Positions 3,412-64,000 of a DNA stretch of 64,000 nucleotides are shown here, piece after piece. A program made the translations under genes and the position numbers. The DNA lies in the IMG/VR virus record IMGVR_UViG_3300009008_000023, positions 1 through 64,000 of that record. One strand, given 5' to 3'. The first letter of the stretch is position 1. The number at the start of each line of letters is the position of its first letter. This stretch comes from a virus. Lineage: Duplodnaviria > Heunggongvirae > Uroviricota > Caudoviricetes. Below the pieces are notes generated by a model that saw only the letters and a program-made list of their open reading frames with translations, had not been told where the DNA came from and did no database searches.

Positions 3412-3516
3412 ATAAAATCTCCTTTGTTAGGTCATCAACTGCCTCTAATATAGTAATATACAGTCTTTTTGTCAAGTTCTTTCATTTTTAAGCTAAAAAA
3501 GAGGGCAACTGCCCTC

Positions 3517-4498: not shown

Positions 4499-4618
4499 TT
4501 AGGAGCCCTTTCCGTGCGTCATAAGAATCCAGTATTCCTACCCTAAGAATTGGTGGATTCATTATTCTTATACCAATATTTAAACTAAAAGAGAGCCGAA
4601 GCTCTCTTTAAGGTGACC

Positions 4619-5340: not shown

Positions 5341-5766
5341 TTACGAAATCTTAACCTTTGTATTTGTAGTTAGGAAAGACCCAGTACCATTGTAGCTCAC
5401 ACTACTATCAGGTATCCATGTCTCTCCTGGTTTCCATGCAGGCGAGACTACAGTAAACTTAGCATCAAATGTAATCCCCTTCAAAATGATCCTCCTACCA
5501 TTATATGTGCTATTAATCGTAAGCTGATTAGTATTTAAGTCATCAATAGTAATAATACCAATACCAGGTATCACATAAGGTGGCCGCATATACGCACACC
5601 CCGGCACTATAACTGTAGATTCATCTCCCTCTAAACATACTGGCACACTCTGTGCCTTAAGATCGCTACTAGCGACAATAATACCGGGAGCCACTGTTAC
5701 TACAGCACCTCCAAAGCTCGGTAGAAATATGGCTTGGTCACCCGATACAATTACATAATCATTCAT
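5341..5766 (-). CDS. hypothetical baseplate-associated protein (141 aa)
   Basis: ORF immediately downstream of spike-like gene. Confidence 0.35.
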   Translation of the reverse strand: MNDYVIVSGDQAIFLPSFGGAVVTVAPGIIVASSDLKAQSVPVCLEGDESTVIVPGCAYMRPPYVIPGIGIITIDDLNTNQLTINSTYNGRRIILKGITFDAKFTVVSPAWKPGETWIPDSSVSYNGTGSFLTTNTKVKIS

Positions 5767-5769
5767 GAC

Positions 5770-6102
5770 TTATTTTATATTCTCTAGTGGATTTAATTCA
5801 CTACCACCTGTATTACTCACTTGTAGATAACTACTGTTATTTAGTTCAGCATATGCTTTAATATGTGTCACGACCTGATTAGCAATTACTTCAGCTAACT
5901 CATTATAAAAATCACGTAATGCAGAGATAGCATCATTATAATCTTCTTGATCCATATCACCAATTGCTAAACTTGTAGCTAACGGAGGTTTATGCAACAG
6001 TGTAATTATATTGAGCCATATACTGCCGGGAGTCGGTGTATTTTCTGAGCCGCCCACTCCATAGAGTATTGCATTCTTTAATACACCTTCATCTAATGCC
6101 AT
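5770..6102 (-). CDS. hypothetical protein (110 aa)
   Basis: ORF in baseplate cluster. Confidence 0.35.
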   Translation of the reverse strand: MALDEGVLKNAILYGVGGSENTPTPGSIWLNIITLLHKPPLATSLAIGDMDQEDYNDAISALRDFYNELAEVIANQVVTHIKAYAELNNSSYLQVSNTGGSELNPLENIK

Positions 6103-8184: not shown

Positions 8185-8226
8185 GTCTTAATTATAACAA
8201 TTACACTCTCATAGGTCAAGCGTTAA

Positions 8227-8240: not shown

Positions 8241-8321
8241 TATAGTGGACGAGGGCGCATTTGCGTCCTTTTTTAGGTATAAGAATTCTGAACAACCAAC
8301 TTTCTTACATAGCTCAAAGGA

Positions 8322-13500: not shown

Positions 13501-14553
13501 ATGGCAACCAATGTAGGAGTAATCATTGGCCGATTTCAGGTTGATGATCTACACCCGGCTCACAGAGCCATTATTGATGAAGTGAAGGACAAACACTCAC
13601 AGATCCTCGTGTTCTTGGGGTGTCCGGCAACATATCTCAGTCAGCGTAACCCTCTGGATTTCTCTACGAGACGTCGTATGATTCAGAGTCATTATCCTGA
13701 TGTGGATGTCTTCCAGATTAAAGACCACAAGCTCGATAGTATCTGGTACCAGGAGCTTGACCGTCGTATTCGAGAGATTGAACCGCATGCTGAAATTACG
13801 TTGTACGGCGGGCGTGATTCTTTTGCTGACTACTATGATGGAGCATTCCCGGTTGAAGTTCTCACAGATATCGAGAACTCTTTCTCTGGCACTGAAATAC
13901 GTGAAAGAGTTGGAAATACTCCTCTCTCAACTCCTGACTTTCGTGCTGGCGTGATCTATGCTATTGCTAATCGTTTTCCTCTTACCCACTTAACAGTCGA
14001 TATAGGGCTAATAAACCCATATCACTCGTCCCCTACAAAGAACTCAAGAATTCTGCTAGGTAGAAAAGAAGGTGATAGGCAGTGGTGTTTCCCAGGCGGG
14101 TTTGTCGATGCAAAAGACGCATCACTCGAAGACGCTACAAGGCGTGAACTCTTTGAAGAGACTGGGTGTCACACTAGCAGTGTGCAAATGTGTAAGTATG
14201 TAGCAAGCTTGGAAGTTGTGAATGATTGGCGCTACAAGAATGAGGTTGATCGTATCATGACGAATGTGTTCCTAATGGAACTTCCACCTAATTCACCTTA
14301 TCTTAAGAACAATGATCAAGGCGAAGAAGGTACAGGCTTACTATCAGAAAATAAACTAAAAGCCAGTGATGATCTTGCAGAAATTCAATGGTTTGATTTG
14401 AAAGAATTTAGCGAGACTCCACATCATTTTGTTACTAATGATCTCATTACAAAGGCTCATCAGCCAATCATGCAAGTCTTTATCGCACATCTCAAAGACA
14501 ACGAGCTCTACGGGCTCGCCAACGATAAACCTAAACCACAGGATTGTGATTAA
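13501..14553 (+). CDS. natV: bifunctional NMN adenylyltransferase / Nudix hydrolase (NadM/NatV-like)
   Basis: N-terminal GRFQ(V/P)xHxxH cytidylyltransferase HxGH-type motif; C-terminal Nudix box GGFVDAKDASLEDATRRELFEETG; strong RBS AAGGAG. Confidence 0.85.
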   Translation: MATNVGVIIGRFQVDDLHPAHRAIIDEVKDKHSQILVFLGCPATYLSQRNPLDFSTRRRMIQSHYPDVDVFQIKDHKLDSIWYQELDRRIREIEPHAEITLYGGRDSFADYYDGAFPVEVLTDIENSFSGTEIRERVGNTPLSTPDFRAGVIYAIANRFPLTHLTVDIGLINPYHSSPTKNSRILLGRKEGDRQWCFPGGFVDAKDASLEDATRRELFEETGCHTSSVQMCKYVASLEVVNDWRYKNEVDRIMTNVFLMELPPNSPYLKNNDQGEEGTGLLSENKLKASDDLAEIQWFDLKEFSETPHHFVTNDLITKAHQPIMQVFIAHLKDNELYGLANDKPKPQDCD

Positions 14554-14997
14554 TGGACCAGTTAAATGATAACCTAGCTGTCATGACCGACAGCTACAAA
14601 GCAGGACATTTTCGTCAGTACCCTGCCGGTACGACGTCAATTATGTCTTATTTTGAATCCCGTGGAGGTTTACCTTACACGGTGTTCTTTGGTCTCCAGT
14701 ACATCATCAAAAAGCACCTTCTTGGTCGGGTGATGACTCAGAAGAAGCTCACTGCAGCACAAATTTTTTGGAACGAGCACTTTGGCGATAATCAGCCTTG
14801 TGGTGAAGATATATTCAATCATAAGGGTTGGCAGCACATCATCGATAATCATGATGGGCATCTGCCTATTCGCATCCGAGCGGTCCCTGAAGGGACTAAG
14901 GTACCTTCATCAAACGCCCTCATTACAGTAGAGAATACTGATCCTGAGTGCTTCTGGCTTACCAATTGGTTGGAAACGTTGTTAGTACAAGTATGGT
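14553..14997 (+). CDS. nadV: nicotinamide phosphoribosyltransferase (NadV/NAMPT), exon 1
   Basis: MTDSYKAGHFRQYP...DGHLPIRIRAVPEG...TDPECFWLTNWLETLLVQVW matches the NAMPT N-terminal region; ends at T14997 before in-frame TAG. Confidence 0.8.
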
Positions 14998-16022
14998 AGA
15001 AATGCCCTTTATGGTGGTAACACCATATCGAAACTTCTCTAATTGCTGGGATATCCTAATTATAGGACGATCAGCAGCGAAGCCTAATCTAATTAGTTCT
15101 TGCATTAGTAAGTATTATTTGTTATATTTACTATAGTTACTAACTAATTAGGAGTTTTTTTATGATAGGAAAACAATTTGGAAACGATCTTGTTATAGAT
15201 AGAAAAGTTGAACAAAGATCATATGGTAAATTAACCCTTTACCTTGTTGAGTGCCAAAAATGTAGCAACAAAAAATGGGTTCAAAAATCCGCCCTAGTTA
15301 ATGGAAATATAAAGTGTAGAGTAGGTATATGTAACAGACAAGTACCTGATTTCACTAATCAAATATTTCATTATTGGACTGCTTTAGAATATGTAAAAGA
15401 TAAAAAATCACGTGGATGGTTATGGAAGTGTAAGTGTAAATGCGGGAATGTGGGATATGTCCGCACTCATACATTACAATCTGGACAATCAAAGTCTTGT
15501 GGTTGTTATATGAAAGAACAACTGTCTCAACGTCAAACACTTACTGACTATATAGGACCAAAACGTGAAATTTATAGAAATTACAATAGAGCCTCTAATA
15601 AGAGAAATTATGAATTTTTATTAACTGAAGAACAATTTTTTGAACTCATTGAACAGCCATGTTTTTACTGTGGAATAGAAAAGTCAATGGTTTTTTATCG
15701 ACAAAACTATAGATACAATGGTGTTGATAGAGTAGACAATTCTATAGGATACACCATAAATAACACAGTGTCATGTTGTAAAAATTGTAATAACTCTAAA
15801 AGTACACTATCTCAACAAGAATGGTTTAATTGGCTTAAACAAGTTTATACCTATCAGAAAGCTCAAGGAACGTTCAACGACTAGTCGAAAGACGTACACC
15901 CAAGTGGGTGGAAATGGGAAGGCTCCTATTAGTTTAGGAGTTTGATATAGTCTGATCTACATAGTAATATGTAGCAGCTCACAAGAGCGGGCTGAGATTA
16001 ACGACCTCAGTTAAACACAATG
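14998..16022 (+). mobile_element. group I intron (1025 nt) interrupting nadV, carrying an HNH homing endonuclease ORF
   Basis: Joining T14997 to A16023 restores the frame and the conserved NAMPT motif VQ(V/S)W-YP(T/I)T(I/V)ATNS; 5' exon ends in U, intron ends in G. Confidence 0.7.
15162..15884 (+). CDS. intron-encoded HNH homing endonuclease
   Basis: C-terminal GVDRVDNSIGYTINNTVSCCKNCNNSK HNH motif; own RBS; AT-rich codon usage. Confidence 0.8.
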   Translation: MIGKQFGNDLVIDRKVEQRSYGKLTLYLVECQKCSNKKWVQKSALVNGNIKCRVGICNRQVPDFTNQIFHYWTALEYVKDKKSRGWLWKCKCKCGNVGYVRTHTLQSGQSKSCGCYMKEQLSQRQTLTDYIGPKREIYRNYNRASNKRNYEFLLTEEQFFELIEQPCFYCGIEKSMVFYRQNYRYNGVDRVDNSIGYTINNTVSCCKNCNNSKSTLSQQEWFNWLKQVYTYQKAQGTFND

Positions 16023-16978
16023 ATCCTACTACAATCGCCACCAATAGCCATATGGCAAGAACTAACATTAACCAGTATCTTGAAGATACTGGTGACCCCA
16101 CACTCATTGACTTCAAGCTTCACGACTTCGGTTACAGGGGAGTATCATGTGATGAGCAGGCCGGCATTGGTGGAATGGCTCACCTCACCTCCTTCATGGG
16201 TACTGATACTGTTAAAGGTATCATAACCGCGCAACAGTATTACAATGCACAGATGTGTGGATTTTCCATTCCGGCCAGCGAACACTCAACCATGACTTCA
16301 TGGGGGAAGGATCATGAGCTTGATGCTTTCCGTAACATGCTCGATCAACATCCCACAGGACTAGTTGCATGTGTGAGTGATTCATTTGACATCTATCATG
16401 CATGTGAACAGTACTGGGGCACTGATCTTAAAGATCAAATCCTCGGAAGAGACGGCACTCTTGTCGTCCGTCCTGACTCTGGTGACCCCATCGAAGTAAC
16501 AGAGAAAGTGTTTGAAATTCTCTGGAAACAGTTTGGTGGAACCACCAATGAGAAGGGATACCGTGTTCTTGATCCCCACATCCGCATGATTCAGGGCGAC
16601 GGCATAGACTTAAATATGCTGGCTATGATTCTTGCCAACTTTAAGGACAAGATGATTTCGGCTGATAACATCGCGTTTGGGTCTGGTGGGGGACTTCTCC
16701 AGCAGTTCAATCGTGATACTGGTCGCTTTGCTTTCAAGTGCTGTCACGCTATTATCAATGGCGAAAGCCGCGACATTTTTAAAAGCCCTATTGCGGGTAG
16801 TAAGCCTTCGAAGAAGGGTTATCTCACTCTACAGAAGAATGATGGTGGCGCGTTCGAGACCATCAATGATAGGGTATTACACTACTCTGATGAAAACTTA
16901 CTTGAGCCGGTTTATGAGAATGGCGTCCTTTTAAAGGATCAAACATTCGCTGAAATAAAAGCTCGTATCTTGGTATAA
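16023..16978 (+). CDS. nadV: nicotinamide phosphoribosyltransferase (NadV/NAMPT), exon 2
   Basis: YPTTIATNSH...KLHDFGYRGVS...GSGGGLLQ... collinear with NAMPT central and C-terminal regions. Confidence 0.8.
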
Positions 16979-19039: not shown

Positions 19040-19060
19040 ACCTTAAAAATTGGAATAAGA
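19030..19060 (+). promoter_or_regulatory. phage promoter motif variant (tttttACCTTAAAAATTGGAATAAGAAAA) upstream of sigma factor gene
   Basis: Shares the extended upstream ACCTTAAAAAT element with sites 31240 and 54385. Confidence 0.5.
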
Positions 19061-19100: not shown

Positions 19101-20012
19101 ATGAAATTAAAGGAATTAGTGGATGCGCGTGATTCAGAGTTTTCACGAACTCTTCAAACGACTTTAAACAAGTACTCAGTACTTTCAAAAGCAGAAGAAG
19201 AGCCCATTGCTAAAAAGGCATTTGAAGGCTGTGAAACTTCAAGAGACTTGCTAGTTTTTCACAATCTTCGATTTGCAATTAAGTGGGCCTTAGACTCTCA
19301 TCAGGGGGCTGGTATAGAGTTTACTGATGCTACATCAGTTTGTATTTTAGGCCTTATTAAGGCATCAAAACGCTTTGATTACCAACAAAACACAAAGTTT
19401 ATTTCATATGCAGTTTGGTGGATGAGGGCCGGTATAACTCAGGCATCAAGAACATCGGACACAGTACTGCTTCCTGCTAATCGTTACACTCAGAGAATGA
19501 AAATACGCACTTCACGTTCTAAACTGTACCCATTGCTTGAGCGTATTCCAACAGTGGATGATATCTCACGCGATACTGGAATCGACGTTGAATCAATTAG
19601 ACTCATTAATAGTCACCATGTTATTAGTATTAATGGTCCCATACAAGGACCGGATAAGTCGGAAAGAGATGACCCTAGATTCCAGAGCGAAGATTTTGTC
19701 TCTTCTTGTCTTCACCCTGACTATAGTGGTTATAACAAACTCGCAGCCCTCAATGCCTTAATTAATACACAAACCAGAGAGCTTATAAAGGAAATAACTC
19801 TCAGTAAAGTGGATCAGCGTGAAGCTTTCATCTTAGATCGACGCTTTGGGTTAGGGTGGTTAAATCCAAGGCATAACGAACCACAGTCTTTAGAGAGTGT
19901 CGGTAAGGAATTGGGGATTAGTCGTGAGCGCGTTCGCCAGCTTCAAGCCAGGGCTATCTCTAAAATTGAAGGTTCATTGGAACGGCTAGATATTACTTCT
20001 ATGGCTAGTTAA
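19101..20012 (+). CDS. sigma-70 family RNA polymerase sigma factor
   Basis: Region 2 signature FISYAVWWMRAGITQA (cf. FSTYATWWIRQAITRA) and region 4.2 LESVGKELGISRERVRQLQARAISKI helix-turn-helix. Confidence 0.75.
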   Translation: MKLKELVDARDSEFSRTLQTTLNKYSVLSKAEEEPIAKKAFEGCETSRDLLVFHNLRFAIKWALDSHQGAGIEFTDATSVCILGLIKASKRFDYQQNTKFISYAVWWMRAGITQASRTSDTVLLPANRYTQRMKIRTSRSKLYPLLERIPTVDDISRDTGIDVESIRLINSHHVISINGPIQGPDKSERDDPRFQSEDFVSSCLHPDYSGYNKLAALNALINTQTRELIKEITLSKVDQREAFILDRRFGLGWLNPRHNEPQSLESVGKELGISRERVRQLQARAISKIEGSLERLDITSMAS

Positions 20013-21845: not shown

Positions 21846-22133
21846 ATGAGCGAGTTAAGGGAGCGTGCTTCGAATATTACGGGGCGCGCTAAAAGAGAAC
21901 GAAAACGGGAAGAGGCAGAAAAGCGGCAAGCGCGCTATAAAGCCCTCTCGCTCAGAGAAAAGTTTGCCAGAGCTATCACCGCTGATGGTAATTCTGGTAG
22001 AGAGTTAGCTAAGCTAAATCAAAAAGCTCTGAAGCTTTCGGAGGAGGATCAAACCACACTCCGAGAGGGGTTGGTATCTGATCTAGCTGATTTTATGATC
22101 ACAAAACAGCTTGATACTGTACTAAGATTTTAG
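21846..22133 (+). CDS. hypothetical basic protein (95 aa)
   Basis: ORF. Confidence 0.35.
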   Translation: MSELRERASNITGRAKRERKREEAEKRQARYKALSLREKFARAITADGNSGRELAKLNQKALKLSEEDQTTLREGLVSDLADFMITKQLDTVLRF

Positions 22134-22360
22134 TATATTAGATACCAGCCACAAAGAAGGGGTGAGAGATCTACACTCCTTCTTTTACTTTAACAACTGA
22201 GGATCAATGGAAACGCACATACGAAAGCCAAAACGGCTTCGTATTCAGGAGGAAAGTGAGCAAACATACAATCCCAATAACTTCGCAAGACGTCGGATTG
22301 AACAAAATCGCTATAATTCACTTCCTCTATGGAAAAAGTTTTGGGTGAAATTGACACGTA

Positions 22361-23308: not shown

Positions 23309-23474
23309 ACATCCGACAGAGCAGGAAATTAAAAAGTGGTGCTCATGTAATATGTGTGGGCATCACTTTATTAAAGCTCCGAAAAAGAGCTCTAACCCCA
23401 TTTTAAAAGGAAAAAGATTTATTTGTCCAGAATGTAAATGGGAAAACACTCGTATGGTTCCAATAAATTATTAA
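23283..23474 (+). CDS. hypothetical zinc-ribbon protein (63 aa)
   Basis: CSCNMCGH...CPECK. Confidence 0.3.
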   Translation: MLGEQKLSKHPTEQEIKKWCSCNMCGHHFIKAPKKSSNPILKGKRFICPECKWENTRMVPINY

Positions 23475-23482
23475 GGAGATAT

Positions 23483-24739
23483 ATGGAATTAGTAATTACA
23501 ACAGAAAAATTTCCAATAAAACTATGGGCACGTGAGTCAGAAATAGAAGAAAGTGCATTACAACAATTAAAAGATGTGGCTAATATGCCATTTATACATA
23601 AGCATATTGCTGTAATGCCTGACGTACATACAGGTCTTGGTGCAACCATTGGGGCTGTTATTCCTACTAATGGAGCAATAATTCCTAGTGCAGTAGGCGT
23701 AGATATTGGGTGTGGTATGCACGCTATCAAACTCAATCTTACGTATAAAGCATTTATTCAACACTTAGTAAATAACGTGTTTCCTAACATTGTTTACAAT
23801 GACGATCTTACTCGCAATCTAATTGAGTCTGCAATTCCGCACGGACGAACAGATTATGGTGGAACAAATGATGTAGGCGCATGGCCAAAACAACGTATTC
23901 CTTTATCTGTAAAGGCAGTATACTATGAGAAACTTAATTTCGAAGTTACGAAGCATGAGATTCTTCGCAGACACCCAGGCTTACTTGCAGGATTTGTTAA
24001 CAGCGTTCGTCATCTTGGCACTCTTGGCACTGGCAATCATTTCATCGAATTAGCTAAAGATGAGAGTGATAGGGTGTGGCTTATTATCCATTCGGGCTCA
24101 CGTGGAATAGGTAATAGAATAGGTACATACTTTATTAAGCTTGCAAAAAAGATTAATAAGAAATGGCATATCGATCTACCTAATCCTGATCTAGCGTACT
24201 TCCCACAAGACACTCAAGAGTTTAAAGACTACTGGGAATGTATGAAGTGGGCACAAAAGTTTGCTCGCCTCAATCGTGAGCTAATGGCACAAAGTGTGCT
24301 AAATGAACTTTGGATAGCTTCTAATGAAATAGAAAAAGAGTATGACTGCCACCATAATTTTGCTGAGTGGGATCACCAAGGGAACACTAATTTTATAGTA
24401 ACACGTAAAGGAGCCACTCGTGCCAAGAAAGACGAGATCGGAATCATCCCTGGTTCAATGGGTGCAAAGTCATATATTGTTACCGGTAAGGGCAACATGG
24501 ATTCTTTTGCTTCTTGTTCTCACGGCGCAGGTAGAAAAATGTCTCGAAAGGTGGCTAACGCTACCTTCACAGCCGAAGACCTGGAAGAACAGACGCGTGG
24601 AGTCTCTTGTAGAAAAGATGGAGACTTATGTGATGAAGCGCCTGGAGCGTACAAGTCAATTGATGAAGTTATATCCTTACAAGAAGATCTAGTTGACATA
24701 AAACATACACTTAAACAGTTTGTTTGTGTGAAAGGCTAG
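23483..24739 (+). CDS. rtcB: RNA-splicing ligase RtcB (3'-phosphate/5'-OH RNA ligase)
   Basis: MPDVHTGLGATIG, GTLGTGNHFIE, CHHNF and SCSHGAGR signature motifs; RBS AAGGAG before ATG 23483. Confidence 0.9.
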   Translation: MELVITTEKFPIKLWARESEIEESALQQLKDVANMPFIHKHIAVMPDVHTGLGATIGAVIPTNGAIIPSAVGVDIGCGMHAIKLNLTYKAFIQHLVNNVFPNIVYNDDLTRNLIESAIPHGRTDYGGTNDVGAWPKQRIPLSVKAVYYEKLNFEVTKHEILRRHPGLLAGFVNSVRHLGTLGTGNHFIELAKDESDRVWLIIHSGSRGIGNRIGTYFIKLAKKINKKWHIDLPNPDLAYFPQDTQEFKDYWECMKWAQKFARLNRELMAQSVLNELWIASNEIEKEYDCHHNFAEWDHQGNTNFIVTRKGATRAKKDEIGIIPGSMGAKSYIVTGKGNMDSFASCSHGAGRKMSRKVANATFTAEDLEEQTRGVSCRKDGDLCDEAPGAYKSIDEVISLQEDLVDIKHTLKQFVCVKG

Positions 24740-31650: not shown

Positions 31651-31679
31651 ATAAATAGCTTGACATTTGAGTATTCCGT
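31651..31679 (+). promoter_or_regulatory. consensus sigma70 promoter (TTGACA-17 bp-TATAAT) driving the intron HNH ORF
   Basis: cTTGACAtttgagtattccgtatgTATAATtag; perfect -35 and -10 hexamers, 17-bp spacer. Confidence 0.7.
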
Positions 31680-31694
31680 ATGTATAATTAGTAC

Positions 31695-34628: not shown

Positions 34629-34705
34629 GGCTCTATAGCTCAGTCTGGCGAGAGCGGCGGTCTCTAAAACCGTGTCAGTCGTGGGTTCAAATCCCACTGG
34701 GGCCT
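34629..34705 (+). tRNA. amber-suppressor tRNA, anticodon CUA (tRNA-Sup)
   Basis: Acceptor GGCTCTA/TGGGGCC; D arm GCTC...GAGC; anticodon stem GCGGT/ACCGT; loop C-U-CUA-A-A with U33 and A37; T arm GTGGGTTCAAATCCCAC. Confidence 0.65.
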
Positions 34706-34725
34706 CTTATCACAAAGGAGTAAGT

Positions 34726-43918: not shown

Positions 43919-44965
43919 ATGGAAAGAGCGTTGGCGAGCATTCAAAGAATTGATGCTCTCGATCCTATTGAAGGTGCCGACCGAATTGAAGTAGCCACCA
44001 TCTTAGGGTGGAAAGTAATTGTTAAAAAAGGTGAGTTTCAAGTCGGTGATAAATGTATCTATTGTGAAATAGATAGTGTATTACCTGCAGATAACCCTGA
44101 ATTTGAGTTTATGCAAGCTCGAAGTAAAGGCCGTGTAAAGACCATGCGTATGCGTGGTGTGCTGTCTCAGGGGATTGCATTCCCTATGAAAGTATTACAC
44201 GATCAACTAGTGGGCGAATTACAATGGATTATGCCCGCTGATGTTAATCAGATTGATCAAGATGTCACTGACCTTTTAGGCATCACAAAATACGAACCGC
44301 CTGCTGACTTCAAACAAGGTGCAAGCAAAGGTACATTCCCTGGGTTTATTCCCAAAACAGACGAACTCCGACTTCAGTCTAAGCCCGAACTACTAGAAGA
44401 ACTTGCAGGTGAGCGTTACGTTATTACTATAAAAGTAGATGGAACATCTGCCACTTTCTTTTGGCATGATGGTGAGTTTGGCGTGTGTTCACGTAATATG
44501 GAAAAGAAGCTTGATGGAAACAGTGTTTATTCACGAATTGCTAAAGAATACAAACTCCAAGAAATTCTTGAGGACATTGAACGCGAAACGGGCATTGAAT
44601 TAGCACTCCAAGGCGAAATTGCTGGACCTGGAATTCAGAAGAATCCTTTGGGTCTTAAAGAGCTCCAATTATTCTTATTCACTGGTTTTAACATCCGAGA
44701 AGGTAAATACTTAGATCATTTAGAGTTCAGTGAATTATGCACTCGTTGGGAACTGCCAATGGTATATGTAGCAGAGTATGGAGCTGAATTTAAACACACA
44801 CTTGAGTCTCTTCTAGAGCTTGCTAAAGGTAAGTACCTAGGAACAGATAATAACCGTGAAGGTATCGTTATCCGCCCGTTCCGTGAAATGGTTAGTAAAC
44901 GTTTACATGGTAGACTTTCTTTTAAAGTAATAAATAATGATTTTCTTGAAAAAGGAGAAGAGTAG
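43919..44965 (+). CDS. ATP-dependent polynucleotide (RNA/DNA) ligase-like nucleotidyltransferase
   Basis: Motif I ITIKVDGTSATF (KxDG); downstream motifs partially recognisable. Confidence 0.5.
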   Translation: MERALASIQRIDALDPIEGADRIEVATILGWKVIVKKGEFQVGDKCIYCEIDSVLPADNPEFEFMQARSKGRVKTMRMRGVLSQGIAFPMKVLHDQLVGELQWIMPADVNQIDQDVTDLLGITKYEPPADFKQGASKGTFPGFIPKTDELRLQSKPELLEELAGERYVITIKVDGTSATFFWHDGEFGVCSRNMEKKLDGNSVYSRIAKEYKLQEILEDIERETGIELALQGEIAGPGIQKNPLGLKELQLFLFTGFNIREGKYLDHLEFSELCTRWELPMVYVAEYGAEFKHTLESLLELAKGKYLGTDNNREGIVIRPFREMVSKRLHGRLSFKVINNDFLEKGEE

Positions 44966-50583: not shown

Positions 50584-50926
50584 AAAAGTAAAGAAAGTAA
50601 AAGCCGTAGCCAAGACTAAACGCATACGAAGGACTAAAGCAGAAATTAATGCTGGAGTCACTTTGGAAAGTAAAAAGGCGCCTAAAAAGAAACCTGCCAC
50701 TAATCAGAAAAAAGTGGTAAAAGAAGCAACTACGAAAAAAGCTACTAAGAAAACAAAAGATGACAACGATGTAGTTGAAGGAAAATTTAGAAAACTTACA
50801 GTATTGAAAGATAAACCGATTAAATTACGTGTATTAAATAAAGTAATTAATGAGGGTTGGGAATTTTGCTTTACGCAAGATTGTCTTGGTGGTTTTGAAA
50901 TAATCTTTCAGAAATCAAAAGAATAA
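50567..50926 (+). CDS. hypothetical Lys-rich protein (119 aa)
   Basis: KKVKKVKAVAKTKRIRRTK basic N-terminus. Confidence 0.35.
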   Translation: MANKLKKVKKVKAVAKTKRIRRTKAEINAGVTLESKKAPKKKPATNQKKVVKEATTKKATKKTKDDNDVVEGKFRKLTVLKDKPIKLRVLNKVINEGWEFCFTQDCLGGFEIIFQKSKE

Positions 50927-54781: not shown

Positions 54782-54815
54782 AAAAAAAGCGCCCGTGGTG
54801 GAGCGCTTTTTTTAG
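54782..54815. terminator. bidirectional rho-independent terminator between convergent transcription units
   Basis: A7-AGCGCCCGTGGTGGAGCGCT-T7. Confidence 0.75.
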
Positions 54816-54833: not shown

Positions 54834-55232
54834 TTATATGCCGTATTTATCTTTTGGGGATTTAAATACATAAACAGGAGTTTCACTAGCTCTATCAAGT
54901 TTATAAGGAGCTGTAGTATCGTCGTCATCATAATACACTTCTTCAGCCTTTTCAGGCTCAGTTTCTACCGGAATACCTTCTTGTTCTTCTGTAATATCCT
55001 CAATTAGAATTCCGTCATCATAATACTCAAGAGGTATAATGTAGCCAGACATTCCTTCTAATAAATCCCATAAATCTATTACAGGTCCTTGTTCTTTTAT
55101 TTCATTGCTAGATACAAGATAACACTCTTCATTATCTTCTATAGGATCAATAATACCATCCATATAATCAGTATTATACTTTTTATCATTCCAAACTACA
55201 TGATGTGTATCGTTTTTTATAAACCAAGGCAT
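54834..55232 (-). CDS. hypothetical highly acidic protein cotranscribed with the RNAP gene
   Basis: ATG overlaps the RNAP stop region; Asp/Glu-rich (YYDDDDTT). Confidence 0.4.
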   Translation of the reverse strand: MPWFIKNDTHHVVWNDKKYNTDYMDGIIDPIEDNEECYLVSSNEIKEQGPVIDLWDLLEGMSGYIIPLEYYDDGILIEDITEEQEGIPVETEPEKAEEVYYDDDDTTAPYKLDRASETPVYVFKSPKDKYGI

Positions 55233-55235
55233 TTA

Positions 55236-58200
55236 TTATTTATCTCCGAATTCATCTCCATAAATATAAGCAGGGATTGGGTCTTTTCCTGCAATATCTC
55301 CGTATGCAGCTTTGGAAGCACCTTCTTGTATTGCTGCTTTAATTCTATTCGTATAGAAACGTGTTAACCAATCTTCACTATCAACATTTAACGTTTCGAT
55401 TGATTTAAAATACGGTTTATATTTAATTGTGTCAAGACTTTCTTTTGTTCTTTCCTTATTTATTTTATCTAAATAAGAAATAGTTGACTTATCACCGCGC
55501 AAGAATCCGCTATTACTGGGAGCTTCCATAACTTCAGCATTATCTGAAATCCCTCGAATAACAGTTTCTAAGCCCTTTTTATAGAAGTCATCTTCATAGA
55601 TAGTATTAATCTGATCAACAATATACTGTTGTGCAGCTAAGTGTCCTTTATATTCGGCTAATTCTTGAGGTTTAATAGAACCGTTTGTAAGAGGGTCCCC
55701 AGGTGACACCGAATCTCCAACCTTAACAATAATAGTTCTTGAACTTGGAATTGTTATTGTTTTGTCATTCTTAGTCCCATACCCTTCAATTCGAACATCA
55801 TAACCACCCACAACGTTCTTTCGAATTGACTTAACTTTGCCTTTAACGGGAGATAAGACTGCTTTACTCTTAAGTTTTTTAGGTACTTCTAGTAGCTGAA
55901 CAAGTCTTGGGAATCCTTCAGTAACACCGCCGCTAGTACTTACTGCTGCGCCTCCTGTATGGAAAGTTCTCATAACTAATTGAGTACTTCTTTCAGTAAG
56001 GGCTTGTGATTCTATAACTCCAATGTTTTCACCAAGATTAGGTAATTGACCGTTTGGCATTAATCCATAACAGAGTTGGCAAACACCGTTAGAAGTTTTA
56101 CAAGTTAGGGGACTTCTTACTTCCACTGTTTGTACTTTTGCGGCTTTTAATTTCATTAAAATACGCGAATCAATCAAATCGTTCTTTTTTGCAACGCCTT
56201 TTATTGACTCCGCTAAGTGTCGGTCCATTACATCTTTAGAATTCACCGAAAGCTCAATACCTTCATGAGTTTTACAGTCTTTTTGCGTTACAAGTAATCG
56301 ACGTGTTACACCAAGCAACGCTTTATTAAGTGCTCCAGAGTCAGCAGTGTTTACCGCTCGGTCAACTGTTCCTCGACGTACACCATAGATGTGGTTCCAG
56401 TAACTTGCTGTATCAATTCCCTCACCATATGATTTAAGAATGGGTACAGGGATTGGGTTACCATCAAGGTCTTGCACAACTCCAGGTAAAGATAAGATCT
56501 GCCGTACATTACCTTTTTTACCTCCACCAACACTGCCAGACTCAATCATTTCATAAATATTATTGGTTTTAGCTAAGGCTTTATCCTGGGCTTTTTCAAC
56601 TTTACTCGTTAAATCAATATAAGCATTAATTCTCGCAGTGCCTTTTAGTTTTTCAATTTTCGGTAATTCTTTTTCATACAATTTATCACGATAAGATTTA
56701 TCTTGCACAAAGTCAGTGATAGAGATGGTATGTGATCGTTGATGCGCATAAGTGTTACCAAGCTCTTTAAATCTATTTGCAACTTTACCAAAATCAGAGC
56801 GATACTCTTTACCAATCTGCTCAAACAATTTGCCTACAGCTTTTTTATTCATTTGACGAGTATAGTTTTTAAGTGCTGTAGGTAATACTTTATTAATTTC
56901 GTACTGCCCAATAGTCATCTTCTTACCGTGTAAAGTAAAGACATCAGTTGGGTGTAACCCCGCCGCTTTGGCTTCCGTTATTGATTTAAATGTTTTGCCT
57001 GTGGCTTTACCAATCTTACTTAAATAGTAAAGACCGACGATGTACTCTTGAGAAATTTCTGGTACAACAGAGTTATCACCGTGTTTGAAGATAATATTAC
57101 TAGGCAGAATCTTATAAGCTTCGGTTACAGCCTCCGCACCAACAGGCACATGAACTGCCATAGTATCACCATCAAGGTCAGCATTGAAACCAGAGAAAAT
57201 TATGGGGTTAAGTTTAATTGCTTTACCATCAACTAATACGGGTTTAAATGCTTGTATACTATGTTTATGTAAACTAGGCGCTCTGTTAAGTAATACAGGC
57301 CGATCTTTCACAATTAATTCCAATGCTTTGTCAGCTAATTGTGTGTCTTCATTTACTTCTTGAAGCGCTTTACCGGCTTTCATTCCCTGTCTTACAAGCT
57401 CTTTAATAATAAAAGGTTGGAAGATAGTTTTAGCCATACCCTTAGGAATACCAACTTCATCAATTCCCAGGTCAGGTTCAACAGTAATGGTACTTCGTGC
57501 TGAAAGTTCTTGTCGTCTCCCCCACGTAGTTGAGTGAACGAATCCGTGCTTAACTTGTTTACCAGTAAGCTCTTTAATTATGCCTTTGTATTTCTTTTGT
57601 GAATAAGTAACAGGGTCAATAAATCCTTGTTGGGCTTTTATCGCTTTGTACAAAGAGTGATCATATTGATGTTGCTCTTCTTGGCTTAATTTAGCTTTAA
57701 TTGCTTTATAGTTAGTATTAATAACGCCTATGTCTCGATAGTGCTGATTAATATCAGACACCATTAAGTCACCACTTGGTAGTGGATAAATTGGTCGATA
57801 CACAGGAGGTAATACAGGAACAAATTTTGTTAGGTATGCTTGTGTAGGTGTATATCCTAAGTCTTTAAGTGCTTCTAGGTATCTTACTTTATTATTAAGT
57901 TTATTAATATTAGATTCAGGGGCATCTTTCAATTCTTTTCGAAGTTTTCGCAGTTCAGTAGTAATATCAATAGATTTTAATCCCGCTGTAATTGCATCTA
58001 CACCTGTTTTACCATCTAACTCAAGTTCACCTGCCATTACTTTATCAAACTTATCTTCAGTTAAATCTAAGAGTTTGGTAATCGCTCCTTCATACATTGG
58101 ATTAGGAAGCTTTTTAACTAAGTTAATATGAGTCCACTTTTCACCAGCTAGACCACCGGTTATCTCTCTATCAAACAACCCGCCTTTACGTTCTGCAAGA

Positions 58201-61200
58201 TTCTTACCTTTAAGCATAGCGCCTGGGTCAGTTAACTCACCGGCAGACCATTCTTTAATAGTAGTGTCTGTTAGAGGGAAGATTCTAAATTTACTACCCT
58301 TCTTTTCAACATTAACGCCTGCGGCTTTTAAGTAGTTAACCATTTTATCAAATACAAAGTTAGACTCAGGTGGAGCTGGAGCTAATCCTAGTTGTAAATT
58401 ACGCCAATACTCATCATTCTTTCTACCTTTAATAGTAGACATTTCTTTAAGAAGATTTTTAGTGCCATGTGCTAACATAGAGTAAGTAAGCATCGGGTCA
58501 ATTTTTTGTGCGCCTTTACCTACAGGCAGTTCGTTAATATCGTAAGACCCGAAGGAGTGCTCTCCCGCTTTCTTCTTAACAATATGACGCAGTTTCATAA
58601 AGTACTGATTACCTACAAAGATGGACTTTTCAAAGGGCTTCCCTGTAGCTCCGTCAGTTAAAGTTTCATTAGCTTTAATACCAAGCTTTTTCATTTCTGC
58701 GTAAACTTTTGTAGCATTATCATCACCAGAGAAACTTTTAACTAAATAGGGCTTACCTGTTTTCTCAGCAATCTTTCCGGCAGCAGTTTCTAATATCTGT
58801 CCAATATTCATACGTCCCGGAATACCGTGGGGATTAACCATAATATCCACAGAAGTTCCATCTGGACGATGAGGTGCTTCTGAGTCAGGGATAATTTTAG
58901 TGATAATAGATTTGTTTCCAAACCTACCACTTAGTTTATCTCCCTCTTTAAAGGGGTGAACAGCTTTAATATAAATATCAATATTACGTCCATTTTGACG
59001 AACGTCAATTACTTCTCCTGCCTCTTCTTCATCCCACTCAAGTACCTTTTTAACAAAAGGCGCCATTGTAGCTTTACTGAGTTTTCGAATAACTTTTTCT
59101 TCTTCAGATAATTCCCGTTCTTCTAAAATTGCTACAAGTAGTTCTCCTAGCTGAAATATTTGGCCCTTTTTAGGAAGACCTGTATCCGCTAGTTTTTGTT
59201 TATTAGTTTTAGTTAAAATTCCTGGATACCAAGCAATAAACTTTGAAACATCAAATTGAGTTTTCGCGGGTGTAATAAATAAGTTCTTTTTGTGTAAAGC
59301 TGAATGGCTCAACTTTTGTGCAGCACTCTCAGTAATTACAGCACCATCTTCAAAGTTATACCCTTTCCAAGGCATGAAGGCCACTGTAAGGTTTTTACCG
59401 ATAGCTAAAGTACTGTCTTTATTATAGTTATTGTCTGCTAGAGGAGTATTCCACTTAACTTTATCGCCAACTTCCACAAGTGGGGTGGAGTTTAAGAAGC
59501 CTTCCTGATTAAGTGGGAAGTCCTTATATAATCCACGTTTAACAACTTCACCGTCAGTATCTCTTTTAATAAAAATGTAATCTTTAGTGATTTTAGTTAT
59601 TTCACCTGTAGGTTTAACAACTTTACCATCAACTTCTTGCTCGCCAAGAATAGGGTCTAAGAACCCACCAGCGAGCTCTTCAAAAGTACTATCTTCACCA
59701 AGCTTAGTTTGTACTAAAGGAGCTTCTCTGTCGATTAAGGGCAAGGCTTGCTGAATCATTCGTCCACCCATAGAAGCACGGTTACCTTGTGTATTCTCTA
59801 TAAAGGGTACAAGGTTTGTAGGTATTGAGAACATAGAAGATGCTGAGAATAGGTAGTAATCCACTTCTTTCGGTAGAACTTCTTTAGTGTGTCCTTCATG
59901 ATAGATTTTAACTTTAGGATTTTTTGCTCGAACATTTCCACCAGAAGTTATTTTGTACTGGTCAGGAAACCCTACTTTACTAAAGTAAAATGTTTTGGGT
60001 GTTATGTATGTCTTTTTACCCTCTTTATTAATAACGAGGGTTTTAATATTTCTACCCTGCTTAAGAGTATCCAGTGAAAGCCCTAGTGTGATTCCTACTT
60101 TACCACTTTCTGGAGTAGCTAATGAATCTAAGAATCCCAAGTGTGTGGGGTGCACATTACGAGTTTCCATAGTCACTGCGTGCATAGATCCAATACCACC
60201 TGTACCCATAGGTGAAGTCTTTCGCCAATCGCCTAAGATGGTCACAGGATTCGTTTGAGGGGGCGTTGCGGACAGGTCACTGTCAGTGAAGAAGCTTTTA
60301 ACAGGCTTACCAAAAGTAGTAGAAGAAATTACTTCCCGAATTTTGTCTTTAAGGTCAAGGTTACGACTTAACTTTTTAGTAATCACTTCATTCTGTTTTT
60401 CGAAGTGTGCAACCAGCAAATCATCAACAGCATAGATTTGTTTGAATAATAAGCTGTCTCGGTCATCCGGCTCAGCTTTGCCTTTTTCAATGTCTAATAG
60501 TTTAACTGAGGACTTTAGAAGTAAGTCACCATTAACATTTTCTTTCTTTTCACCTAGCGTTATTTCTGTAACTTCAGGATCAACTTTTGCATAGGATCCA
60601 AAATATTTTCTAAGCCCAGCAATAACTTCATTATAATCTGCAGGAACTTTTTTATAGAGCTTCTTGTAGATATTAGTCATTTCGCTAACTTCAGTATTCA
60701 GCGCGCCCTTTTTATTAATCTCTACAAGCTTGGCTCCCCATGCCTCAGTAATTTTATCATCGCCTACGTTTAGGACATTAAGCAGTGTCCATAGCCTGTG
60801 TTTACGATTATCAAAGATCACATAGAAAATGTGTGAGATAGGGTCTAGCTGCATCTTAAAATTGTAACCAGGGAATAAGTTAAATTCATTTTCTAACTCA
60901 CCGTTAGCTTTAACTCTAGCATAAATGCCTGGTTTACGACGTATCTGATTAGTGGTTTGGTATTCGTTACCATCCAGGATAACAGTAAAGCGATTAGTTA
61001 ATTTAGGGATATAACCGATACGGATATTTTCCCGTTTATCAACGGTCTTTCCTGTTTCATTATCTGTGAGCTTGAATGAAGCTAGAATCGGAACTTGCCA
61101 ACTCTTACGATTTAGCTTCAATTCTCTCTGTGTTGGAAAATCATTGCTTTCGAGCTTGTCATCTAAGCGTAACCCAGTGAGTTCCAATTGTTTACTTTTA

Positions 61201-61298
61201 CTCTTGATTGGGAAGCTGTTATTTATTATATTAATAACAGTTTCTTGGATGACTCTGTTTTGCTCACGATGGTTAAGGGCGTTGTCCATTAATTTCAC
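55236..61298 (-). CDS. single-chain multisubunit-type RNA polymerase: fused beta (N-terminal) and beta' (C-terminal) catalytic subunits, 2020 aa
   Basis: Beta motifs [16 protein letters not shown] (cf. ANRALMGANMQRQAVP) and [21 protein letters not shown] (cf. [20 protein letters not shown]); beta' motifs [48 protein letters not shown] (cf. RAPTLHRLGIQAFEP...NADFDGDQMAVHVPL). Confidence 0.85.
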   Translation of the reverse strand: [2020 protein letters not shown]

Positions 61299-61305
61299 CT
61301 TTTAG

Positions 61306-61331
61306 TATTTTTTTGGTATAAGAAGAATGAG
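61306..61331 (+). promoter_or_regulatory. phage promoter motif (tttttTTGGTATAAGAAGAATGAG) at divergent junction next to RNAP gene start
   Basis: Consensus match incl. ATG. Confidence 0.6.
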
Positions 61332-61648
61332 ACCAAGTTCTTAAAATATAGACATTTTAAGGACTAAAGTCAATAAAAGGAGGGACTTGAGCGAAAAAAA
61401 TTCAACCTCTTCATCTTCTTCTGCTAAAAACACGATAAAAGTGAAGTCCGAATCGAGGGACACTATGTCTAATATGTCGGTTTATCGGACTTCTAGCAGA
61501 AAAGAACGACCTTAACCGAATTAACGAATGTCCGAGTATGAAACTGAAACCAGAGATGAAGTTAGAGAAACTCTTAAGGAGTTTGTCAACAATCTCACAG
61601 ACTTGATCTACTTAATGATCAAGAATAGAAATAGCAAGGATTCATTGA

Positions 61649-62040: not shown

Positions 62041-62670
62041 GTGAATATGAGCGAGCGTCAGCCACGAAAAGATCCTATTCAGGAGCTTTTTGAAGGAACA
62101 ACAACTTCATCCAAAAAATGCTTAGTCTGTAGTGAGATCGATCTCACAGCAGAAGAGCTCGAAATGGGGGGAACTTGTTTTTTCTGTAAATATCAGGAAA
62201 TTCAAAAAGCTCGTGAAATCTTTGAACGAGACGATATCGATTTTCCTGTCCCCGAAGAGTATGGGCGACGAACAGAAAACTTAGAGGCTGATTATAGAGG
62301 AGCGACGGATATTGATTCGGGGGAAGAACTTGGCGCCAAGGAAGAAATACTAGACCCTTCAACTGTTAAACGTAAATATACGTGGGACGAACGTAAGAAA
62401 ATGTACGAACAGTTTGGTTGGGATCCAGAAAGCGTTCATATTGATCCAATCACTATTCGCGTCCGGGGTGCGACTGAAGACGTCTACTTAGAACTTCAAT
62501 TACCACGTATTTCAACTGACGCTCTACGTCCAGAATTTACTAAACTCTTAGAACGTACTTTAAGTTTTATTTGTAATGTAAATACTTTTGCTCCACAACA
62601 TCCAGATAGTTTACTACAATTGCGTGGGATTATCGATCCTAGCGGAAACAATAATATGCCCATGGGCTAA
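62041..62670 (+). CDS. hypothetical protein with zinc-ribbon (209 aa)
   Basis: CLVCSE...CFFCK; GAGGTG RBS. Confidence 0.35.
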   Translation: MNMSERQPRKDPIQELFEGTTTSSKKCLVCSEIDLTAEELEMGGTCFFCKYQEIQKAREIFERDDIDFPVPEEYGRRTENLEADYRGATDIDSGEELGAKEEILDPSTVKRKYTWDERKKMYEQFGWDPESVHIDPITIRVRGATEDVYLELQLPRISTDALRPEFTKLLERTLSFICNVNTFAPQHPDSLLQLRGIIDPSGNNNMPMG

Positions 62671-62691
62671 GGATAGAAAGGCCATTGTAGA

Positions 62692-63834
62692 ATGGAAACC
62701 AGTATTAAAAAGCTACATAAGATTGAAGAGGCTTTAAAAGCTTTTTTCGTTGAACGTGACGATGAAGTCCATGGACTTACTTTAGCTTTATTAGCACGAG
62801 TTAACTTGCTTTTGCTAGGACCTCCAGGAACAGCTAAAAGTAAAATAATTAACGCTTGGAGCTCCATGATTCATGGAGCTTCAGTTTTTAGTTGGCTACT
62901 GACCAGGTTTAGTACGCCAGAAGAGTTGTTTGGTCCTTACTCTTTAAAAGGACTAGAAGAAGATAAGTTTATTCGTATCACTAAAGGAAAACTTCCTGAT
63001 GCAAATGTTGTCTTCTTAGATGAAATTTTTAAGTGTAATCCAGGAGTGCTTAACTCTTTGCTTACTGTTTTGAATGAAGGTGTGTTTTTTAATGATGGGG
63101 AACCAGTCCCATTAGATTTGCTGACCACAGTTGGTGCTTCTAATGAGATTCCTGAGGATGAAGATAATCTTCAGGCTCTCTATGATCGCTTTGTTCTTAA
63201 GTATAAGGTTATGCCTGTACGAGAGACTGCGAACTTTTTACGAATGCTGGCTAATTCAGAACAGTTTGTTTCCTCAGTATCTTTAACCTTTGATGAAATT
63301 CGCGCAATTCACCAGAAAGTGGATGGGATTGAATTCACAGGGGTAGCTCAAGAAACCTACAGAGATCTTAGAGCGGCTTTCCAGAAGAAGGGTATTATTG
63401 TAACGGACCGTACCTATAATACTTCAGTAAAACTTCTTAAGGCTGAGGCTCTTTTTCATGGGCGTGAGGAAATTCAAGAAGAAGATTTTGAAATTTTACA
63501 GCACGCTTTCTGGATTAATCCTGAACAGCACAGGATTGTTTACAGTGAAATTCTTGCTGTAACTAATCCTGAGAAGAACGAAATCCTCGAAATTTTCACA
63601 GATGCTGTGGAAGTTGCTAACACAATTGTCGGCAGAGAAGATGCTGCGCCTAATGAATGTTTAGAAGTCTCAAATAAGCTTAAGACAGCTAACAAGCGAT
63701 TAAATGAGATTGCTAAGCGAATGGATCGTAAAGGCCGTAATGTCGATGATGTAAAGAGAAAGAGTTTAGAACTTGAAAACCTACTTGGCCGTATTTTCCG
63801 AGAGAACTTAAGCCTCGGTAGTGACGTGTTATAA
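62692..63834 (+). CDS. MoxR-like AAA+ ATPase
   Basis: Walker A LLLGPPGTAKS; Walker B/sensor VVFLDEIFKCNPGVLNSLLTVLNEG typical of MoxR/RavA. Confidence 0.8.
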   Translation: METSIKKLHKIEEALKAFFVERDDEVHGLTLALLARVNLLLLGPPGTAKSKIINAWSSMIHGASVFSWLLTRFSTPEELFGPYSLKGLEEDKFIRITKGKLPDANVVFLDEIFKCNPGVLNSLLTVLNEGVFFNDGEPVPLDLLTTVGASNEIPEDEDNLQALYDRFVLKYKVMPVRETANFLRMLANSEQFVSSVSLTFDEIRAIHQKVDGIEFTGVAQETYRDLRAAFQKKGIIVTDRTYNTSVKLLKAEALFHGREEIQEEDFEILQHAFWINPEQHRIVYSEILAVTNPEKNEILEIFTDAVEVANTIVGREDAAPNECLEVSNKLKTANKRLNEIAKRMDRKGRNVDDVKRKSLELENLLGRIFRENLSLGSDVL

Positions 63835-64000
63835 CACATACAAAGGGTTAAGATGAGAAAAGTAAATCAAAACATTGATCGATTCGAAAAAGACTTAAAG
63901 CTTCAACGGCTTACCGTTAAGCAAGATGTCATGGATCGTAAAATGTTTGAAGCACTACGAGAGAATAACGCTCTACTTTCTCATAGTTTAAAGGAAATGC

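Follow-up and report, generated by a model that had tools for sequence, protein, structure and literature searches.

A bacterial-type RNA polymerase with fused beta and beta' modules in a large, mostly metagenomic family of tailed phages

The fused RNA polymerase gene and its product

The DNA analysed here is a 64-kb window, positions 1-64,000 of the IMG/VR record IMGVR_UViG_3300009008_000023 (Caudoviricetes), and all features are numbered by this window. The whole genome is probably near 200 kb, so the window is only a part of it, and a 116-kb scaffold from ERZ23498660 overlaps with this phage. The minus strand carries an uninterrupted open reading frame (ORF) at 55236..61298, with 2020 codons counted from a GTG and a TAA stop, that encodes the two large subunits of a bacterial-type RNA polymerase (RNAP), beta (RpoB-like) and beta' (RpoC-like), as one polypeptide. 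The original prediction, made from the letters of the sequence, had described a 6-kb minus-strand ORF of 2020 aa. The ORF was found intact, but the length needed a correction. The true start is the ATG at 61289, nine bases downstream of the GTG, giving a product of 2,017 aa and not 2,020, because the GTG lies within the Shine-Dalgarno sequence AAAGGTGA (61295..61302, minus strand) and the identical database protein P0001 is also 2,017 aa long from the same ATG. In a relative with 88% identity (L187) the GTG is out of frame and the ATG is retained. We annotated the coding sequence at 55236..61289 (minus strand; 2,017 aa plus TAA) with the ORF and its translation, Pfam and NCBIfam matches, P0001 and the ratio of nonsynonymous to synonymous substitution rates (dN/dS). 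This ratio was 0.04 against L187, with dS near saturation, indicating strong purifying selection. The identical protein was present on three independent contigs.

Pfam profiles placed Rpb2_3 and Rpb2_6 in the N-terminal half and Rpb1_1, Rpb1_2, Rpb1_3 and Rpb1_5 in the C-terminal half, with PF00562 (E 6e-63) and PF04565 as the matches of the beta module. With NCBIfam, residues 11-958 matched PRK00405 (RpoB, E 7e-120) and residues 1092-1979 matched TIGR02386 (RpoC, E 5e-159). Both halves were thus placed where the original prediction had expected them, the first with Rpb2/RpoB and the second with Rpb1/RpoC, and all four of the RpoB and RpoC hallmark motifs that it quoted, the DxDGD loop among them, were present in the translation. 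The scores stayed far under the curated equivalog cut-offs (531 bits vs 963.5 for rpoC and 401 bits vs 896 for rpoB), which points to a divergent homologue and not to a captured housekeeping gene. The best matches among solved structures were bacterial beta' for the C-terminal part (Thermus; C. difficile 7l7b_D, residues 170-1107 in one stretch) and bacterial or cyanobacterial beta for the beta module (8syi_C, residues 29-1019 in one stretch). Archaeal and eukaryotic RNAP structures scored far below the bacterial ones, and the nearest structures were not of the QDE-1 or YonO type, an affinity that had been named beforehand as evidence to the contrary.

The beta module (residues 1 to ~999; 58293..61289, minus strand) was delimited with phmmer against E. 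coli RpoB and is collinear with the ~1,100-aa cyanobacterial beta. In the phmmer alignments it lacks E. coli SI1 (about 229-425, with 68 residues in its place), SI2 (932-1050) and the segment 1125-1178. The beta' module (residues ~1000-2017; 55239..58292, minus strand), which was delimited with phmmer against E. coli RpoC, with 7l7b_D and with the family consensus, lacks SI3 (E. coli 943-1130). The protein had been estimated to be about 730 residues shorter than the E. coli subunits, and this agrees with their summed length of 2749 (beta 1342, beta' 1407), the difference being 729-732. The accompanying description as a 'minimised core' could be kept only in part: the enzyme is shorter than that of E. 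coli, but mostly in a trivial way, as beta SI1, beta SI2 and beta' SI3 are insertions of the E. coli lineage that are absent in many other bacteria as well. The beta module is similar in size to cyanobacterial beta, and the beta' module is about 150 residues under the smallest solved bacterial beta'. The real additional loss is that of the N-terminal zinc-binding domain of beta' with its four cysteines, since the first 75 beta' residues, which replace E. coli beta' 1-159, hold no cysteine; the domain is absent from the family consensus too.

The catalytic Mg2+ loop NADLDGD (residues 1369-1375) lies at 57165..57185 on the minus strand, and its residues D1371, D1373, G1374 and D1375 were invariant among 27 diverse family members. 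The trigger loop reads MRTFHTGG; the trigger-loop helix (residues 1770-1780; 55950..55982, minus strand) has no SI3 insertion behind it. The second zinc site, the clamp helices and the bridge helix are also retained in the beta' module. Together with both double-psi beta-barrels, the bridge helix, trigger loop and Mg2+ loop would build an active centre that is the same as that of the bacterial enzyme. The counterpart of the rifampicin-binding pocket (60192..60293, minus strand) could be aligned to E. coli beta 505-538 without gaps and carries the substitutions Q513A, D516P, H526D and L533M (E. coli numbering), from which, based on the known RifR positions, rifampicin resistance is predicted.

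The beta/beta' junction (58260..58322, minus strand) connects the last beta strand with the first beta' strand via a tight turn: beta finishes with ...AAGVNVEK, a four-residue turn follows, and beta' opens with KFRIFPLTD. It was without gaps and well conserved in 59 intein-free homologues (33-100% identity). An AlphaFold (AF2) model of residues 861-1240, built from 23 sequences, had a mean predicted local distance difference test (pLDDT) score of 82 and scores of 83-94 at the junction, where the flanking strands E132-137 and E140-145 (model numbering) pair as an ordered hairpin. The beta' part of the model superposed on bacterial beta' clamp chains (Foldseek E 1e-13). The fusion would do no more than close the short gap between the last beta and the first beta' strands, which are already paired in the clamp.

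Distribution of the family and its relation to known enzymes

The fusion is not unique to the window phage and defines a large metagenomic family. More than 100 clusters in the protein database, of about 2,005-2,060 aa, had the same domain order, and their contigs (up to 228 kb) came from JGI, ENA, Logan, Tara and NCBI. In IMG/VR, at least 564 stretches matched in a profile-guided scan, and 86 loci were fetched and examined. Full fusion was seen in 60 of these 86, and the beta/beta' junction was spanned in 25 more. One locus is broken solely by in-frame TGA codons. The IMG/VR contigs of the relatives reach 215 kb. A second recurring architecture consists of a beta-beta'N protein of ~1,450-1,525 aa and a separate beta'C of ~600-620 aa. 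Isolates with this form are Salmonella phage Arash, where the two proteins are gp206 and gp216, and the Vibrio phages D69, D148 and D181. No relative above ~31% identity was found in 185,579 prokaryotic species genomes, or in a plasmid collection and phage records, and megablast of window positions 40000-64000 against phage records gave no match. The fused family is so far known almost only from metagenomes, and its sequences are already public under automatic names. An enrichment of Bacteroidota among the genome matches was considered as a host clue and rejected, since it follows from the exact peptide pattern used in the scan (FMPWKGYN).

We built a neighbour-joining tree of 41 taxa (1,950 columns, 100 bootstraps), in which branches were long and the bacterial sample was narrow, mostly Bacteroidota. 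The phage enzymes stood apart from the bacterial ones in 100/100 bootstraps, and their identity to the bacterial cores in this data set was ~25-27%. The split form was monophyletic (100/100) and nested within the fused forms, whose own monophyly was recovered in 1/100 bootstraps. This nesting suggests that full fusion is ancestral in the phage lineage.

The RNAP family is also an unusually dense intein host, although the window copy itself has no intein. In many relatives (P0004-P0102) the RNAP gene is interrupted by inteins or homing endonucleases, up to three in a gene and at least one, inserted exactly at the TPE, GDK/GNK, NPxGxP, DxDGD and trigger-loop motifs; the Mg2+ loop and the trigger-loop helix are thereby intein hot spots. 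Insertion at such motifs is typical of essential active-site motifs. In addition, in-frame TGA codons were observed in the RNAP genes of relatives with 55-59% identity, namely L004/L007/L098 (codon 748), L097 (two sites) and L119. Three of the four distinct sites align with a conserved Trp of the window protein, which suggests a reading of TGA as Trp in these phages or in the hosts they infect.

Among published enzymes, the closest kind are those of the multisubunit-RNAP-encoding Caudovirales (mReC), metagenomic tailed phages with some genomes >200 kb (Weinheimer & Aylward 2020, PMC7481178). They have a compact beta (~1,000-1,050 aa) and beta' (~900-975 aa) of ~2,000 aa in total, can be aligned to COG0085/COG0086 and form a clade apart from cells; the window RNAP likewise lies on a Caudovirales contig, is detected by cellular beta/beta' profiles and has the NADxDGD motif. 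The difference lies in the gene structure: beta and beta' are two separate genes, for proteins of at least 800 aa each, in the entries compared (Supplementary Data 2, PMC7481178), whereas the window has one ORF. Fusion is mentioned there for crAssphage only, and the names of our source contig and sample had no match in the supplements searched (PMC7481178).

The nearest isolated relatives are Arash and the Vibrio phages D69, D148 and D181, with 29-31% identity over up to 97% coverage. They have the same fusion at the beta-beta' junction and have also lost the zinc-binding domain, but in these phages a break in beta' near residue 1445-1457 leaves beta-beta'N and a separate beta'C. The whole genome of Arash resembles the window further in its two sigma factors, about 21 tRNAs, NAD-salvage genes, PAAR spike, DUF3307 and the TGGTATAAG motif. 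The RpoBC proteins of Helicobacter and Wolbachia (NF007172, NF011417) are likewise single chains in which beta' comes after beta and the same termini are linked, but these are housekeeping enzymes of 2,840-2,890 aa with all bacterial domains. The window protein scored 569 bits vs a cut-off of 5,372 for NF007172 and 507 bits vs 4,632 for NF011417, thus missing both by an order of magnitude. With these low scores and only ~27% identity to bacterial cores, the phage fusion looks to have arisen independently.

The enzymes of phiKZ and AR9 are likewise phage-encoded two-barrel RNAPs of cellular type without alpha or omega, and exist in virion and non-virion versions. They differ in being far more divergent, in consisting of 4-5 polypeptides and in having non-sigma specificity subunits (gp68, gp226) and no sigma factor (PMC7824862, PMC7598289). 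The distinction from these split enzymes made by the original prediction agrees with the single ORF, the sigma-70-family gene in the window and the weak matches to the PHROG families of phiKZ/AR9 type (E 1e-14 to 1e-26, as compared to 1e-91 to 1e-121 for the two best families). The crAss-like gp66, YonO and QDE-1-like enzymes also have both barrels in one polypeptide, but little past the barrels is recognisable in their sequences and they have no Rpb1/Rpb2 accessory domains, whereas six Rpb1/Rpb2 Pfam domains were detected in the window RNAP. The RNAPs covered in reviews of jumbo phages are all split and lack sigma factors (PMC7824862, PMC7598289, PMC13282480). In the searchable literature, which does not cover most subscription journals, we found no description of a full phage beta-beta' fusion, of its family or of its promoter motif.

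Promoter-like motifs, sigma factor and neighbouring genes

The reiterated promoter motif of the original prediction proved to be real. Allowing at most one mismatch, TGGTATAAGAA (class A) had 17 sites in the window vs 1.97 expected, a number reached in 0/100 shuffles, and it recurs in relatives and in Arash. The sites start at 4565 and 5314 on the minus strand and at 8275, 13003, 16971, 19051, 20047, 21723, 22379, 29710, 31256, 32363, 42364, 50715, 51158, 54396 and 61314 on the plus strand. All 17 are co-oriented with the local genes and most are intergenic; those at 16971, 29710 and 42364 overlap the 3' end of the upstream ORF, and the one at 50715 is inside an ORF. Several stand directly behind a terminator hairpin and about half are then followed by nnATG, a placement and spacing that fit a -10-like element with a fixed start site. 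The copy at 61314..61324 (plus strand) faces away from the RNAP gene, as had been noted earlier for a divergent promoter motif. In the upstream comparison of the relatives, where about 1 class A copy per strand is expected by chance, a copy with at most one mismatch was found divergently upstream of the RNAP gene in 25/86 and on the RNAP strand in 0/86. Total class A counts at this threshold did not separate the loci of the relatives from AT-rich bacterial control loci, and only exact counts, position bias and strand bias are informative.

Arash, which infects Salmonella and has a GC content of 53%, has 36 copies of TGGTATAAG(T/A)A vs 6 expected. These are found on the minus strand in 33 of the 36 cases, before non-structural genes, with the consensus TGGTATAAGTAArGTG. 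The published description of Arash reports no promoter analysis (PMC10585845). As phages of very different hosts share the motif, the factor that reads it should be phage-encoded.

A second motif, TTGAyw-17-TATAwT (class B), occurs 6 times in the window vs 0.41 expected, at 3447-3475(-), 8191-8219(-), 22111-22139(+), 31660-31688(+), 61204-61232(+) and 61345-61373(-). The last of these, TTGACT-17-TATATT, is the RNAP gene's own -35/-10-like site, upstream of the gene and on its strand, and the same arrangement was found before the RNAP gene in the 9-10 nearest relatives. Two further class B copies precede large minus-strand genes beside the gene of a spike-tip protein.

A sigma-70-family factor of 303 aa with regions 1.2-2, 3 and 4 is encoded at 19101..20012 (plus strand), behind the class A site at 19051. 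The sigma-like gene predicted at 19101 was thereby confirmed, regions 2, 3 and 4 all being detected (Pfam Sigma70_r2/r3/r4; PHROG 351), and the best match was B. subtilis SigA 109-358 (E 1e-25). Of the two Arash sigma factors, gp196 (E 4e-11) resembles it more closely than does gp10 (E 0.004), the virion sigma. Used as an IMG/VR probe by peptide patterns it found no relatives, and against phage records it gave uninformative matches only (24-33% identity).

The immediate surroundings of the RNAP gene were also as originally described. A small acidic ORF (54834..55232, minus strand; 132 aa, pI 4.05, 34 D+E) begins 3 nt past the RNAP stop. It adjoins the RNAP gene in P0002 and L187 as well and lies 1.5 kb downstream of it in L004/L007, but no copy was found in more distant relatives and it has no Pfam match. 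We considered it as a lineage-wide omega- or delta-like partner and rejected this, since it is kept in the nearest relatives only and lacks a Pfam match. Next to this unit the reported bidirectional terminator was found as a hairpin of the form A7-GCGC-loop-GCGC-T7, read from the sequence at 54782-54813. It separates the converging plus-strand genes from the unit of RNAP gene and acidic ORF, and could end transcription coming from either side. On the other side of the RNAP gene, its conserved divergent neighbours are a 209-aa ORF, a MoxR-type AAA+ ATPase and a VWA protein (62041-64000, plus strand, and beyond). Genes for a glycosyltransferase and for a 308-aa reverse transcriptase (RVT_1) follow on the contig just past the window end (L003 880-8598).

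The window further encodes NAMPT, an NMNAT-Nudix fusion, RtcB, RNA ligase, ThyX, dCMP deaminase, ClpP, HSP20 and a MoxR-VWA pair, and 22 tRNA genes are scattered among small ORFs at 33764-54301 (plus strand). The NMNAT-Nudix fusion, an N-terminal NAMPT fragment, NAMPT, RtcB and RNA ligase lie at 13501-16978, 23438-24739 and 43919-44965. The NAD+ salvage set is common to the window and Arash, which has RNA ligases and no RtcB annotated; this sharing of NAD+ salvage and RNA repair points to a common genome style across the lineage. One tRNA (34629-34706, plus strand; ARAGORN label 'Pyl') has the anticodon CTA and would read amber UAG. TAG recoding in the window is unsupported, as TAG terminates 27 of 113 co-oriented ORFs despite this tRNA(CTA).

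A contractile-injection-system spike-tip protein (PF19267) is encoded at 5341-5766 on the minus strand. The ORFs upstream of it on the same strand, at 5770-6102 (110 aa) and 6112-8184 (690 aa), had no matches and are probably baseplate hub or spike genes. This group was the sole set of virion-type genes recognised, and no capsid gene was found in the window. A 579-aa ORF at 1672-3411 (minus strand) has the same class B promoter type as the RNAP gene and no Pfam, PHROG or PDB match; its AF2 model from 7 sequences had a pLDDT of 48. In 35 relatives, members of its family are found downstream of the fused RNAP gene, at a distance of 0.3-4 kb. Its identification as a portal protein is unsupported (BLASTP against the Arash portal E 5, hhalign probability 0.2%, no PDB match). 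A separate family of 370-590 aa (L182 16169-17941) lies on the same strand downstream of the RNAP gene in 37 relatives, often directly adjacent, and has no copy in the 64-kb window.

Proposed mode of action, timing and meaning

The best-supported reading is that this gene of a large tailed phage encodes a functional catalytic core of bacterial type in one chain, and we consider this to be likely because homology, invariant catalytic residues and purifying selection come together. A single polypeptide, with beta (~1,000 aa) fused head-to-tail to beta' (~1,015 aa), would form the entire catalytic core. Phage sigma-70-family factors would steer this core to promoters; both elements on which sigma would dock can be aligned to E. 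coli, the clamp helices of beta' being kept along with a helix that resembles the flap tip of beta. The phage machinery would then read the lineage-conserved, -10-like TGGTATAAG(A/T)A together with a conserved start site, and the RNAP gene, with its canonical -35/-10 site, may belong to a different promoter or temporal class. The enzyme would be insensitive to rifampicin, and the core would function without a phage alpha or omega, either stand-alone or with subunits borrowed from the host. A more specific proposal is put forward tentatively: a stand-alone core without alpha and omega, directed by phage sigma to a -10-only promoter (TGGTATAAGwA) with a start 5-6 nt downstream, and, in at least some of the lineage, packaged into the virion and injected as a single chain.

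Several observations weigh against the working-core reading or parts of it. Searches with phmmer (E up to 10) of the window, the complete Arash genome and 1.8 Mb of the relatives' loci gave no homologue of alpha or omega, with single E. coli sequences as queries, by which a very divergent analogue would be missed. This leaves the assembly of the core unexplained. As the window is 64 kb of a genome of probably ~200 kb, partner genes may lie outside it. The N-terminal zinc-binding domain of beta' is missing from the window protein and from the family consensus, and the flap-tip-like helix, though it can be aligned in the beta module, is weakly conserved in the family. TGnTATAAx resembles an extended -10 element and could be readable by the host holoenzyme. 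Because the sigma gene itself stands behind a class A site, another factor must start the cycle if this sigma reads class A. Finally, no canonical -35/-10 sites of class B were found in the Arash genome, so that the promoter of the RNAP gene has no counterpart there.

Two models for the timing of the enzyme appear about equally likely, each a serious possibility somewhat short of an even chance. According to the first, host RNAP would transcribe the RNAP gene early from TTGACT-17-TATATT, and the phage core with sigma would then read the TGGTATAAGAA promoters as a non-virion polymerase. This is supported by the near-consensus, housekeeping-type promoter before the RNAP gene in the window and its 9-10 nearest relatives, by the fact that the class A motif is never on the RNAP gene's own strand, and by the position of the gene among non-structural genes in the window. 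However, class B sites also stand before large genes that neighbour the spike-tip gene, and before the 579-aa gene, which in relatives is syntenic with the RNAP gene; these look like late or virion genes. The RNAP gene lies within structural and packaging blocks in Arash and in the relative L182, and the SigA-like sigma of the window, having region 4, could itself read -35/-10 promoters.

According to the second model, the fused RNAP would be made late, packaged with a second, gp10-like sigma and injected, with early transcription starting from the TGGTATAAGAA promoters; a gp196-like sigma, as found in the window, would later switch the core to -35/-10 promoters, the RNAP gene's own among them. 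With both halves in one chain, their joint arrival would be guaranteed. By number of spectra, gp206 (beta-beta'N) ranked first in the Arash virion preparation; gp216 (beta'C) and the sigma gp10 were also among the abundant proteins, although the authors cautioned that abundant enzymes may co-purify with virions (PMC10585845). These data come from a phage with the split form. The motif-bearing genes of Arash are non-structural and on the minus strand, with the RNAP and gp10 genes in plus-strand structural blocks; in L182 large proteins and a terminase are encoded behind the RNAP gene, and in the window class B promoters are common to the RNAP gene and the genes beside the spike-tip gene. Against late packaging speak the lack of a gp10-like sigma in the 64-kb window and the lack of class B promoters in Arash.

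It is possible, but rather doubtful, that the core depends on the host for an alpha dimer, for omega and perhaps for sigma, in which case the system would not be self-contained. The failure to find phage alpha or omega in the loci searched would fit such a dependence. E. coli beta tethered to beta' is said to have still assembled with alpha (reportedly Severinov et al. 1997, J Biol Chem). However, the single E. coli queries would have missed very divergent subunits, and the hosts range from marine bacteria to Salmonella, which at ~25-27% identity to bacterial cores makes a conserved docking of host alpha less likely. The enzymes of phiKZ and AR9 also function without alpha or omega (PMC7598289). 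What stands of the 'self-contained transcription system' of the original prediction is the conservation of the motif across phages of different hosts; with no alpha or omega found, self-containment itself stays conjectural.

That the contig is cellular, carrying the housekeeping rpoBC of a reduced-genome bacterium like the fused rpoB-rpoC of Helicobacter and Wolbachia, is very improbable. The top-scoring NCBIfam match was indeed the Helicobacter-type fused model NF007172, and the window has 22 tRNA genes and a sigma factor, but the score of 569 bits was far from the curated 5,372, none of the 185,579 species genomes had a relative above 31% identity, and the tree separated the phage clade from bacteria in 100/100 bootstraps. 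The window has no ribosomal genes, most of its ORFs are small and unmatched, and it contains PHROG phage families, a spike-tip gene and a strand-block organisation. A phage origin is supported by several lines, namely the tRNAs, NAMPT/NMNAT, RtcB, ThyX, the spike-tip gene, relatives on IMG/VR viral contigs and homologues in isolated phages. An artefactual fusion of adjacent rpoB-like and rpoC-like genes by a lost stop codon, a frameshift or chimeric assembly, in favour of which stand the separate adjacent genes of similar total size in published mReC phages, is the least probable of all, given the identical protein on three independent contigs, the same single ORF on 60 independent IMG/VR contigs and in >100 protein clusters, and the conserved, gapless junction.

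We therefore return to a working single-chain core as the most probable reading. To our knowledge, RNAPs of cellular type have always been of several subunits. The known phage versions are either more fragmented, as in phiKZ and AR9, or have beta and beta' apart, as in mReC. Here, in a large and globally distributed phage lineage, one chain without the zinc-binding domain, with no detectable alpha or omega and with sigma factors of its own, is the rule. The nesting of the split form within fused forms suggests that this ancient enzyme is less fixed in its subunit architecture than textbook accounts would have it. The promoter-like motif is common with the culturable Salmonella phage Arash, which provides an immediate experimental handle. 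If the core is active alone, it would test how little of the bacterial core suffices for sigma-dependent initiation, and would be a single-gene, orthogonal polymerase, probably insensitive to rifampicin. If the stand-alone reading is true, no smaller sigma-dependent RNAP of cellular type would be known, and a single gene would make up a naturally orthogonal transcription module.

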